From Escherichia coli (lineage in GTDB: Bacteria; Pseudomonadota; Gammaproteobacteria; Enterobacterales; Enterobacteriaceae), in assembly GCF_003334335.1 (NCBI RefSeq), contig NZ_QOWQ01000015.1: DNA of 64,000 bases; one strand, written 5' to 3'. Below the pieces are notes generated by a model, which did not search any database, had not been told where the DNA came from, and was given only the letters and a program-made list of their open reading frames with translations. Every line of letters starts with the position of its first letter. The first letter of the stretch is position 1. A program made the position numbers and the translations under genes. This document shows positions 21,816-41,565 of this stretch, piece by piece.

Positions 21816-24828
<3,013 letters not shown>

Positions 24829-25665
24829 ATGACCGTATTACATAGTGTGGATTTTTTTCCGTCTGGTAACGCGTCCGTGGCGATAGAACCCCGGCTCCCG
24901 CAGGCGGATTTTCCTGAACATCATCATGATTTTCATGAAATTGTGATTGTCGAACATGGCACGGGTATTCATGTGTTTAATGGGCAGCCCTATACCATCA
25001 CCGATGGCACGGTCTGTTTCGTACGCGATCATGATCGGCATCTGTATGAACATACCGATAATCTGTGTCTGACCAATGTGCTGTATCGCTCGCCGGATCG
25101 ATTTCAGTTTCTCGCCGGGCTGAATCAGTTGCTGCCACAAGAGCTGGATGGGCAGTATCCGTCTCACTGGCGCGTTAACCACAGCGTATTGCAGCAGGTG
25201 CGACAGCTGGTTGCACAGATGGAACAGCAGGAAGGGGAAAATGATTTACCCTCGACCGCCAGTCGCGAGATCTTGTTTATGCAATTACTGCTCTTGCTGT
25301 GTAAAAGCAGTTTGCAGGAGAACCTGGAAAACAGCGCATCACGTCTCAACTTGCTTCTGGCCTGGCTGGAGGACCATTTTGCCGATGAGGTGAATTGGGA
25401 TGCCGTGGCGGATCAATTTTCTCTTTCACTGCGTACGCTACATCGGCAGCTTAAGCAGCAAACGGGACTGACGCCTCAGCGATACCTGAACCGCCTGCGA
25501 CTGATGAAAGCCCGACATCTGCTACGCCACAGCGAGGCCAGCGTTACTGACATCGCCTATCGCTGTGGATTCAGCGACAGTAACCACTTTTCGACGCTTT
25601 TTCGCCGAGAGTTTAACTGGTCACCGCGTGATATTCGCCAGGGACGGGATGGCTTTCTGCAATAA
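24829..25665 (+). CDS. rhaS: AraC-family activator of rhaBAD and rhaT
   Basis: ORF track, 278 aa; cupin N-domain and C-terminal AraC HTH. Confidence 0.95.
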
Positions 25666-25738
25666 CGCGAATCTTCTCAACGTATTTGTACGCCATATTG
25701 CGAATAATCAACTTCGTTCTCTGGCCGAGGTAGCCACG

Positions 25739-26587
25739 GTGGCGCATCAGTTAAAACTTCTCAAAGATGATTTTTTTGCCAGCGACCAGCAGGCAGTCGC
25801 TGTGGCTGACCGTTATCCGCAAGATGTCTTTGCTGAACATACACATGATTTTTGTGAGCTGGTGATTGTCTGGCGCGGTAATGGCCTGCATGTACTCAAC
25901 GATCGCCCTTATCGCATTACCCGTGGCGATCTCTTTTACATTCATGCTGACGATAAACACTCCTACGCTTCCGTTAACGATCTGGTTTTGCAGAATATTA
26001 TTTATTGCCCGGAGCGTCTGAAGCTGAATCTTGACTGGCAGGGGGCGATTCCGGGATTTAACGCCAGCGCAGGGCAACCACACTGGCGCTTAGGTAGCAT
26101 GGGGATGGCGCAGGCGCGGCAGGTTATCGGTCAGCTTGAGCATGAAAGTAGTCAGCATGTGCCGTTTGCTAACGAAATGGCTGAGTTGCTGTTCGGGCAG
26201 TTGGTGATGTTGCTGAATCGCCATCGTTACACCAGTGATTCGTTGCCGCCAACATCCAGCGAAACGTTGCTGGATAAGCTGATTACCCGGCTGGCGGCTA
26301 GCCTGAAAAGTCCCTTTGCGCTGGATAAATTTTGTGATGAGGCATCGTGCAGTGAGCGCGTTTTGCGTCAGCAATTTCGCCAGCAGACTGGAATGACCAT
26401 CAATCAATATCTGCGACAGGTCAGAGTGTGTCATGCGCAATATCTTCTCCAGCATAGCCGCCTGTTAATCAGTGATATTTCGACCGAATGTGGCTTTGAA
26501 GATAGTAACTATTTTTCGGTGGTGTTTACCCGGGAAACCGGGATGACGCCCAGCCAGTGGCGTCATCTCAATTCGCAGAAAGATTAA
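25739..26587 (+). CDS. rhaR: AraC-family activator of rhaSR
   Basis: ORF track 25565..26587; start placed at GTG 25739 (282 aa, (M)[19 protein letters not shown]…); an earlier in-frame start is possible. Confidence 0.85.
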
Positions 26588-27618
26588 TTCGCCATGCCGA
26601 TGCCGACGATGTTAGCGGCGACAATAATCACCACACAACCGAGGCTCAACACCGTTACCGGACGGCGTCCTGCATTGTACCACTCTTTCAGCACCAGCCC
26701 GACGATACCGCCGCACAATACATAGAAACTCATATGCAGCATCCAACTGATGTAGTCATACTGCGCCGGAATGCGGGCGTGGCCCCAGGCATAGAAAAAG
26801 AATTGCAGATACCACATCAACCCGCCCAGTGTCGAGAGTAACACATTGTGAATGATCAGCGATTTTGCCAGCGAGAAGTCGGCTTTTAGCGACAAATCCT
26901 TCACTTTTGCCAGACGAATAAAACAGAAACCGAGGTTAATGATCGCGCCGCCGCCCATGATGACAACATAGCTTGGCAGAGCGACATACAGTGGATCGAC
27001 GCCAAGTGCGGCAGCGGCTTCATGCATCGGTTTTGCGGCGTTCATCGCAAAGGACATCCCGGCAGAGAAAATGCCGCACATCACCGCCAGCACCAGCCCT
27101 TTTTTCAGATTGAACTCTTCGGCTTTAATGCCCATCTTGCGCTCTTTCAACTGCCCGGCGCGAGTTACAATCCCTACGCCAATCAGCGCCACCAGAACGC
27201 CGAGCAACGTCATGCGTCCGCCTTCGGTGCTAATCAACACATCGAAATTGCCGTTGATAATTGGCGTCATCAGCGTACCGACAATCAACGTAATGCCAAT
27301 GGCGATGCCAATTCCCATCGACATGCCGAGATAACGCATGGTCAGGCCGTAGTTGATATTACCGATCCCCCACATAGCGCCGAACAGAAAAACAGGCAGT
27401 AGCGTAGAGAGACTAAACGAGCTGTAATACGCCCAGAAATTCGGTAGTAACAGGGCGCTGATGGCCCACGGCAGAATAATCCACGAAACAATCCCACCGA
27501 CTGACCACATGGTTTCCCATGACCATTTTTTTACTTTTTTGAACGGAGCGTAAAAACAGGCTGCACTGGCCGCGCCGATCAAATGCCAAAATATCCCCAT
27601 CGTAATCGCGTTACTCAT
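26584..27618 (-). CDS. rhaT: L-rhamnose:proton symporter
   Basis: ORF track, 344 aa polytopic membrane protein; its stop overlaps the rhaR stop (convergent 4-nt overlap). Confidence 0.95.
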
Positions 27619-40385: not shown

Positions 40386-40814
40386 ATGGCTTATAAACAC
40401 ATTGGCGTGGCAATTTCCGGGAATGAAGAAGATGCCTTACTGGTGAATAAAGCCCTGGAGCTCGCCAGACATAATGACGCTCACCTGACGTTAATTCATA
40501 TTGATGATGGCTTAAGCGAGTTGTATCCGGGTATCTACTTCCCTGCAACAGAAGATATTCTTCAATTGTTGAAGAATAAGTCGGATAACAAGCTGTATAA
40601 ACTGACGAAAAATATTCAATGGCCGAAGACAAAACTGCGTATTGAACGCGGAGAAATGCCGGAAACACTGCTGGAAATTATGCAAAAAGAGCAGTGCGAC
40701 CTCCTTGTCTGTGGTCATCATCACTCATTTATCAACCGTTTGATGCCGGCATATCGCGGGATGATCAATAAGATGAGTGCGGATTTGCTCATCGTGCCGT
40801 TTATCGATAAGTAA
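40386..40814 (+). CDS. uspD: Universal stress protein D
   Basis: ORF track, 142 aa, UspA-fold. Confidence 0.9.
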
Positions 40815-40818
40815 CCGC

Positions 40819-41565
40819 TTACCAGTAATGCTCCGCTGTCATATGGCCCGGTCGGCGACGTAAATGTTTCGTCATCTGCCGGGTCTCTTTCAGCAACTGT
40901 TGTGTATCGCGCACCATCTGTGGATTGCCGCACAGCATCACATGGCTGGTTTCTTTATTCATCGGCAGGCCAATCGTGCTTTCCAGTTCCCCACTTTCAA
41001 TTAATGCCGGTATCCGTCCGGTGAGCGACCCCGCTGCCGTTTCCCGACTGACCACCGTCTGAATGCGCAGTTTTCCTTCGTAGCGTTTTTCCAGTTCCTG
41101 CATCAGTGGCAAATAGCTTAAGTCGGCGGCATAACGTGCGGCGTGCACCAGGACCAGATTTTTGAAGCGATCTAAATCTTTACCTAGTTGCAGAATCGAT
41201 AAATAAGGGCCAATCGCTGTACCGGTTGCCAGCATCCATAGCGTTTCGCAGTGCGGCACTTCATCGAGCACAAAGAATCCTGCCGCTTCGCTAACCACCT
41301 GCACTTCATCGCCTGGTTTCAGTGCCGCCAGTCGTGGGCTTAATTTGCCATCGGGGACGGTGACCAGGTAAAACTCCAGATCGGGATTATCGGGCGAGTT
41401 TACATAGGAGTAGGCGCGCTGGACGCGTTCGCCGTCGATTTCAAGGCCAAGCTTGGTAAATTGCCCGGCGGTAAACGGAAGCACGGGGGCGTGAACGGTG
41501 AGACTAAACAGGGCGTCGGTCCAGTTCTGCACTTTAGTGACTTTGCCTGTTACCCAATCAGCCAT
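40819..41565 (-). CDS. fpr: Ferredoxin/flavodoxin-NADP(+) reductase
   Basis: ORF track, 248 aa; FAD-binding RAYS motif (RAYSYV) and NAD-binding region. Confidence 0.95.
   Translation of the reverse strand: MADWVTGKVTKVQNWTDALFSLTVHAPVLPFTAGQFTKLGLEIDGERVQRAYSYVNSPDNPDLEFYLVTVPDGKLSPRLAALKPGDEVQVVSEAAGFFVLDEVPHCETLWMLATGTAIGPYLSILQLGKDLDRFKNLVLVHAARYAADLSYLPLMQELEKRYEGKLRIQTVVSRETAAGSLTGRIPALIESGELESTIGLPMNKETSHVMLCGNPQMVRDTQQLLKETRQMTKHLRRRPGHMTAEHYW

Follow-up and report, generated by a model that had tools for sequence, protein, structure and literature searches.

How are the transcripts of two convergent genes brought to an end when their coding regions leave no DNA between them? The L-rhamnose locus of Escherichia coli raises this question at the junction between rhaR and rhaT. 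We analysed the locus in a 64,000-nucleotide stretch of E. coli DNA (RefSeq assembly GCF_003334335.1, contig NZ_QOWQ01000015.1), hereafter called the window, in which it is located at 23-30 kb. It contains rhaB (23072-24541, minus strand), rhaS (24829-25665, plus strand), which is the first gene of the rhaSR operon, rhaR (25739-26587, plus strand), which is the second gene of this operon and codes for an AraC-family activator of 282 amino acids, and rhaT (26584-27618, minus strand), which codes for the L-rhamnose/H+ symporter of 344 amino acids. Beyond rhaT, the window continues with sodA and then kdgT. A first-pass annotation of the window had described the regulator RhaR as helping to control the transporter. 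Such a link exists, but it is an indirect one: RhaR activates rhaSR, and RhaS in turn activates rhaT (PMC9429829). Both promoters, PrhaSR and PrhaT, are activated by rhamnose and CRP and are induced together (PMC9429829).

Results

rhaR and rhaT share four nucleotides at their 3' ends

The first-pass annotation had stated that rhaR and rhaT overlap by 4 nt at their 3' ends and that their stop codons overlap as well, and both statements were borne out when the frames were re-checked. The junction at 26582-26589 reads GAT TAA TT (in its longer context ...CAG AAA GAT TAA TTC GCC ATG CC...). The rhaR gene, the translation of which was checked, ends with ...CAG AAA GAT TAA and has its stop codon at 26585-26587, and rhaT, read on the minus strand, ends with ...GGC ATG GCG AAT TAA and uses the reverse complement of 26584-26586 as its stop codon. 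With their stop codons included, the two coding regions have the four nucleotides TTAA at 26584-26587 in common, one gene on each strand, whereas the two TAA codons themselves share only the two nucleotides 26585-26586. The open reading frames listed for the window end at exactly the positions read at the junction, and RefSeq annotates the overlap in the same way. The start of rhaR is also as in RefSeq, a GTG at 25739; its frame is open further upstream, as far as a GTG at 25565, from which a protein of 340 amino acids would be encoded that begins 101 nt into the 3' end of rhaS. Another overlap of 4 nt is present at 23072-23075 between two minus-strand genes, rhaB and rhaA, which is a common co-directional arrangement.

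An identical 4-nt overlap of rhaR and rhaT is annotated by RefSeq in strain EC416, which was 100% identical in a comparison of 801 nt, and also in K-12 MG1655 (rhaR at 4098646-4099494, rhaT at 4099491-4100525). The window is collinear with K-12 over its first ~50 kb, the part that was compared, and the K-12 coordinate is obtained by adding 4072907 to the window position. Of 5426 complete E. coli genomes, 5424 contain the rhaR-rhaT stretch. The two partners have been characterised in E. coli (PMC9429829) and are no artefacts of reading-frame prediction, as RhaT orthologues are 86-97% identical across 80 species-level genomes and RhaR orthologues 62-98% identical across 74 species.

The overlap is known and ordinary

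TAA and TAG stop codons have the complements TTA and CTA, and an A or G after these creates a TAA or TAG in the other gene, shifted by one base. A YTAR tetranucleotide is therefore to be expected once convergent genes abut. The rhaR-rhaT junction has the properties of such a pair, that is, two genuine genes on opposite strands, the 3' ends of which share the bases of a YTAR tetranucleotide. A census of E. coli has counted 663 overlapping adjacent gene pairs, 75 of which are convergent, and the movement of stop codons has been discussed as a route to convergent overlaps (PMC4161906). The part of the window that was compared with K-12 (~50 kb) holds seven convergent pairs, spaced by -4, 4, 49, 54, 84, 105 and 329 nt, and the rhaR-rhaT overlap is the tight end of this range and no oddity. 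The overlap is thus already known and ordinary, since it is annotated by RefSeq, belongs to about 75 convergent overlaps in E. coli and involves a pair that appears in a published excludon list (PMC12288877).

The tail-to-tail layout is kept in Enterobacteriaceae, while the stop codons interchange

A scan for RhaT with one genome per species yielded 80 loci from Enterobacteriaceae, and in 74 of these rhaR was found convergent to rhaT by tblastn and stop-finding. The spacing between the two genes is -4 nt at 20 loci (for example in Escherichia, Citrobacter, Salmonella, Intestinirhabdus, Trabulsiella and Atlantibacter) and 0 nt at 28 loci (for example in Enterobacter, Kosakonia, Lelliottia, Leclercia, Yokenella, Pseudocitrobacter, Pluralibacter and Cedecea). 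It amounts to -8 nt in Enterobacter sp. R1(2018) (locus L067) and Dryocola boscaweniae (L078), to +4 to +10 nt at 12 loci (for example in Klebsiella, Raoultella and Kluyvera) and to 26-117 nt at nine loci (for example in Mangrovibacter, Shimwellia, Buttiauxella and Tenebrionibacter), and at the three remaining loci (L028, L043 and L079) insertions have driven it to over 1 kb. The spacing is therefore zero or negative in 50 of the 74 species and at most 10 nt (-8 to +10) in 62, counts that are not phylogenetically independent, because the species are related.

All four YTAR forms occur in the 20 loci with a 4-nt overlap (TTAG at 10, TTAA at five, CTAG at three and CTAA at two loci). The C-terminus of RhaT is fixed as GMAN or GMAS in the orthologues compared, and the tail of RhaR beyond the residues W-R-H/Q varies among orthologues in sequence and length. 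The simplest reading of these alignments is that RhaR has a dispensable tail, which would extend until it is stopped by the complement of the rhaT stop codon.

A strong hairpin is located inside the 3' end of rhaR

The first-pass annotation had also claimed that the overlap leaves no intergenic terminator. This is correct as far as it goes: without intergenic DNA there can be no intergenic terminator, and a scan for canonical terminators at the rhaR-rhaT junction returned nothing, the nearest calls being weak 5-bp stems inside the genes. What was missed is a conserved hairpin within the last 20 codons of rhaR. This palindromic element, GGGATGACGCC-CAGCCAGT-GGCGTCATCTC, was identified as an inverted repeat and by folding at 26540-26569 and is present on both strands. 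Its core is a perfect 9-bp inverted repeat, GATGACGCC-N8-GGCGTCATC, in which 26542-26550 pair with 26559-26567. On the rhaR strand, the stem grows to 11 pairs (26540-26569), as the outer G-U pairs form on the rhaR-sense strand only. The core begins 16 nt past the rhaT stop codon on the rhaT strand and ends 17 nt short of the rhaR stop codon on the rhaR strand, and its codons are those for the conserved residues M-T-P..W-R-H of RhaR.

When folded alone, the hairpin has predicted free energies of -19.7 (plus strand; z -4.5) and -18.6 kcal/mol (minus strand; z -3.8), and none of 200 shuffled sequences was as stable. In a 40-nt sliding fold over the 2.8 kb of rhaS, rhaR and rhaT (24829-27618), the hairpin window was the most stable one on both strands, with -23.0 (plus) and -22.1 kcal/mol (minus) compared to means of -6.5 and -7.0 kcal/mol (standard deviations 3.4-3.5). 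A small adjacent hairpin, CCCGG-GAAA-CCGGG, was seen at 26529-26542 in centroid structures and in the alignment; it forms in competition with the outer pairs of the main stem and is limited to the Escherichia/Citrobacter/Salmonella group.

Neither strand has a U-tract 3' of the stem, the plus strand continuing with UCAAUUCGC and the minus strand with CCGGUUUCC. Although the hairpin is GC-rich, it is therefore not a canonical intrinsic terminator. A search against Rfam gave only chance matches below threshold (isrA with 17.6 bits against a threshold of 51 bits, SCARNA13 with 13 bits). There is a single copy of the hairpin in the window and in each E. coli genome, by which a repeated palindromic motif or operator was ruled out.

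Synonymous sites of the stem are conserved

Since the hairpin is written in codons, we compared it with recoded versions of the same peptide. The codons of the last 40 RhaR residues were resampled 1500 times with the codon usage of six local genes. On the plus strand, the best 40-nt folds of the resampled sequences had -12.9 +/- 2.9 kcal/mol, and only 0.2% of them reached the observed -23.0 kcal/mol (P=0.002); on the minus strand, 1% reached the observed fold (P=0.01).

Synonymous sites were then compared between 44 distinct orthologues that keep W-R-H. In the stem, the Thr codon is ACG in 44 of 44 orthologues, which is the lowest entropy of 38 four-fold columns, and the His codon is CAT, again in all 44. 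The Arg codon is CGT in 43 of 44 (second lowest of 48 six-fold columns) and the Gly codon GGG in 41 of 43 (third lowest of the 38 four-fold columns). The Pro codon in the loop makes use of all four third bases (H = 1.46 in the 44 orthologues). A sliding average of class-normalised synonymous entropy reaches its rhaR minimum in the ~24 codons at the 3' end of the gene (mean z approximately -1.0 to -1.1), and the same average detected no depression at the 3' end of rhaT (z 0 to +0.5). Synonymous variation in the 44 orthologues is also strongly depressed in the first 24 codons of rhaT (27547-27618; mean z -1.12), which is the usual signature of constraint at a translation start.

The position of the hairpin is shared more widely than its sequence. 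Across 72 loci, the most stable 40-nt fold in rhaR plus rhaT was located by the junction in 51 cases on the rhaR strand and in 29 on the rhaT strand, where about 10% would be expected by position. The W-R-H-type stem is weakened in the WRQ group (Klebsiella, Raoultella and Kluyvera), and clades without this stem have another hairpin by the junction, such as GCGGCAACGC-AGTC-GCGTTGCCGC in the rhaR tail of Raoultella. Within E. coli, 71 nt over the hairpin and the junction are identical in 5151 of 5415 genomes, and an identity of 99% or more over the surrounding 801 nt is reached by only 1821 of 5424 genomes.

A covariation test on 62 sequences gave no support over shuffle and slide controls: 86% of the cells were paired and the pairs were nearly invariant, and it is because the stem hardly varies that no covariation is seen. 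Selection on the hairpin is consequently deduced from the conservation of synonymous sites alone, and this type of conservation does not tell whether the constraint is on an RNA hairpin, on a DNA palindrome or on something else at the nucleotide level. Moreover, part of the complementarity of the stem (ACGCC/GGCG) is supplied by conserved residues of the AraC-family motif. The evidence thus amounts to a nucleotide-level constraint in the shape of a hairpin and is not proof of an RNA structure.

rhaT is followed by a stem-loop where its 3' flank is free

Loci at which rhaT has a non-coding 3' flank serve as natural experiments. At these loci, a strong GC-rich hairpin follows the rhaT stop codon, in some cases together with a T-run. 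Such hairpins are present 3' of rhaT in Shimwellia (L072; ACGCCCATGCCCCGCATGGGCGTTTTTT) and Buttiauxella sp. (L079; TCCCTGTCATTTTGACGGGGATTTTTTT), and likewise in Tenebrionibacter (L075), Klebsiella spallanzanii (L028), Superficieibacter (L019 and L044) and at loci L037 and L069. Canonical terminators are found after rhaT in two relatives with a free spacer, Shimwellia and Buttiauxella sp. A111. At the three loci in which 1.1-2.1 kb are inserted between rhaT and rhaR (L028, L043 and L079), a strong hairpin follows the rhaT stop codon in each case, accompanied by a T-run in L079 and L028.

In a metagenome-assembled genome of Pluralibacter sp. (L022), rhaR is gone and a gene for an 829-amino-acid PTS enzyme-I-like protein, ending at 4084, converges on rhaT. 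The 48-nt spacer (4036-4083) is a remnant of the rhaR tail in which the hairpin, GATGGCGCC-N8-GGCGTCATC, has been retained, and the deletion of rhaR in this assembly may be recent. Together, the loci with free flanks and L022 indicate that rhaT normally carries a 3' stem-loop, the position of which would be taken by the stem inside rhaR in lineages in which the two genes abut.

A different rearrangement was observed in a soil metagenome-assembled genome (L018), in which an island of ~2.7 kb with two small HTH-like genes and an open reading frame of 593 amino acids is located between rhaT and rhaR (4057-7030). The 3' end of rhaR is duplicated there, with amino acids 243-276 encoded beside rhaT and 232-276 on the distal side of the island, a pattern that resembles integration of an element at this end of the gene.

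Transcription across the junction and the RNA beyond the rhaR stop codon

The rhaR-rhaT pair is listed among 165 convergent "excludons" whose transcripts overlap in half or more of 58 RNA-seq data sets of MG1655 (ExcludonFinder, PMC12288877, Table 1). As the coding regions themselves overlap, an overlap of the transcripts is nearly automatic and does not inform on regulation. The co-induction of PrhaSR and PrhaT by rhamnose (PMC9429829) is at odds with the mutually exclusive expression expected of an excludon, and we therefore gave less weight to a canonical excludon at this locus. The transcriptional interference or antisense effects brought up in the first-pass annotation, with some mutual damping of rhaR and rhaT, are possible.

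RNA that continues past the rhaR stop codon is antisense to the 3' end of rhaT (26588-26725, plus strand). It is C-rich, G-poor and unstructured, with a C/G ratio of 1.4-1.9 over the first 140 nt and a predicted fold no better than that of shuffled sequences (z -0.19). Judged by its composition, this region would be compatible with loading of Rho, to which such features are not specific. The supplements of the Term-seq study by Adams et al. 2021 have no entries for rhaS, rhaR or rhaT, a literature search for Rho-inhibition (bicyclomycin) data on rhaT gave no match for this locus, and a search for a stem-loop or terminator of rhaT or rhaR returned expression-vector papers only.

Discussion

The overlap of rhaR and rhaT is in itself of little weight, as all E. 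coli annotations include it and overlaps of this class are common. What we add is a comparative result, a conserved hairpin embedded in rhaR that is most likely a substitute for an intergenic terminator. We propose that the overlap is a passive by-product of compaction and that the functional element is the hairpin, written in codons and kept by selection, which likely acts as the 3' stem-loop of rhaT and as a two-way pause site; we would put the probability of this explanation at roughly 0.55. The overlap and its conservation, the hairpin and the selection on its synonymous sites are shown by the comparisons described above, and from these we infer the role of the hairpin and the termination of either transcript.

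Compaction would have pushed rhaR and rhaT tail to tail without a spacer in Enterobacteriaceae. On the rhaT strand, the hairpin is at the usual position of a 3' stem-loop, 16 nt past the rhaT stop codon. An RNA polymerase transcribing rhaT would pass the stop codon, transcribe the stem and pause. The stem would then most likely mark the 3' end of the rhaT mRNA and shield it from 3' exonucleases, and in this manner the hairpin would probably replace the missing end-of-transcript signal. As the element is a palindrome, the same hairpin can form in the rhaSR RNA, which makes a pause or barrier in both directions possible. Coming from the other side, the polymerase and the ribosome on rhaSR would have to cross the hairpin before reaching the rhaR stop codon, and the rhaSR transcript would probably end in the C-rich RNA antisense to rhaT, either through Rho or through collision with polymerases that started at PrhaT. 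One might go further and speculate that the hairpin is a coding-embedded two-way termination or pause element conserved across Enterobacteriaceae, which sets the 3' end of rhaT, fixes the point at which the polymerases meet and thereby mechanically couples the output of the regulator and the transporter under rhamnose. We regard this extended version as tentative and consider it more doubtful than the explanation proposed above.

It appears unlikely that neutral compaction is all there is to explain, with both the overlap and the hairpin being functionless, the hairpin following from the peptide, codon bias and shared ancestry, and the transcript ends being set by Rho or by decay. Convergent overlaps are indeed common, with 75 such pairs in E. 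coli (PMC4161906), and the ACGCC/GGCG part of the stem follows from conserved residues; the lack of compensatory changes and of a U-tract as well as the weaker stem in the WRQ clade are also consistent with neutrality. However, just 0.2% of synonymous recodings fold as well as the natural sequence, and four synonymous sites of the stem are extremely invariant for rhaR, while the loop site is free to vary. In addition, different strong hairpins occupy the same place in other clades, free flanks of rhaT carry a hairpin or terminator, and L022 retains the hairpin without rhaR, all of which speaks against a purely passive origin.

The model of the first-pass annotation is somewhat less probable still. 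According to this model, convergent polymerases that nothing stops would interfere with each other and/or produce sense-antisense duplexes, as in an excludon, and so tune the regulator against the transporter. Both promoters fire under one condition, so that polymerases would meet (PMC9429829), but this co-induction is at the same time the opposite of the mutually exclusive pattern by which excludons are defined. Likewise, the listing of the pair among ExcludonFinder's 165 convergent excludons (PMC12288877) favours the model, yet an overlap of the transcripts comes automatically with overlapping coding regions. No canonical terminator is present at the junction, but the conserved hairpin argues for a limited rather than a free read-through, and the synonymous sites at the rhaT 3' end do not have the constraint that a regulated duplex might show. 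Least of all do we favour the idea that the palindrome acts at another level, either as the binding site of a dimeric DNA-binding protein or as an RNA structure just ahead of the rhaR stop codon that would act as a brake on ribosomes or give stability to the rhaSR mRNA. The perfect Watson-Crick core would serve equally well as DNA, the outer G-U pairs are confined to the rhaR-sense strand, and the strongest-fold signal is steadier on the rhaR strand (51 versus 29 of 72 loci). On the other hand, there is one copy per genome and in the window, which matches no known RNA family, an exonuclease barrier upstream of the stop codon would leave a stop-less rhaR mRNA, and the unrelated junction hairpins of other clades fit a conserved structure better than a sequence-specific site.

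For annotation, a modest lesson would be that, where there is no spacer, the signal for a transcript end can sit in the coding sequence of the neighbouring gene and constrain its choice of codons. The finding may also be of practical use for rhamnose-inducible expression tools, as cutting rhaR or rhaT at the stop codon would remove the hairpin and recoding rhaR would break it. A second convergent pair in the window has the same layout. The genes uspD (plus strand) and fpr (minus strand) are separated by a 4-nt spacer (TAA CCGC TTA, junction 40812-40821) and are also in the ExcludonFinder list (PMC12288877), and the strongest 40-nt fold of this 1.2-kb pair is again close to the junction, inside the 3' end of fpr at 40845-40884 (-19.2 kcal/mol compared to a mean of -6.3, standard deviation 2.9). 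The uspD-fpr pair hints that spacer-less convergent pairs in general may hide end signals in the coding sequence of one partner.

When compared with known systems, rhaR-rhaT shows no essential difference from other convergent pairs with a 4-nt YTAR overlap: two conserved genes on opposite strands have interlocked stop codons, here through TTAA, and the tail of one gene reaches the complement of the other gene's stop codon. What deserves attention is that the layout is kept while the stop codons interchange. With excludons, the locus has in common that it is a convergent pair for which overlapping transcripts have been reported (PMC12288877); it differs in that excludons involve the antagonistic expression of neighbours, whereas rhaR and rhaT are switched on together by L-rhamnose, through RhaR and then RhaS. 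An intrinsic terminator is resembled in that a GC-rich stem (9-11 bp, 8-nt loop) lies shortly after the rhaT stop codon, but the rhaR hairpin lacks a U-tract on either strand and was not called by the scan. The closest published model is that of bidirectional terminators. For convergent E. coli genes, it has been described that a non-intrinsic hairpin traps RNA polymerases arriving from both sides, which are then released by head-on and trailing collisions (bioRxiv 10.1101/2022.10.23.513370). Wang et al. (bioRxiv 10.1101/2022.10.23.513370) give a summary of the bidirectional terminator elements that Ju et al. 2019 reported between convergent E. coli genes. The predicted rhaR-rhaT hairpin differs from these in that it is located wholly inside the coding region of rhaR and not in a spacer. 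The features shared with these elements are an RNA hairpin that can form in either direction, a position at a convergent boundary and the lack of a U-tract, and at rhaR-rhaT the hairpin folds on both strands and lies 16-17 nt from both stop codons. If our proposal is true, the junction of rhaR and rhaT would provide the polymerase-collision model with a clean case, found in nature, of a two-way hairpin embedded in coding sequence.
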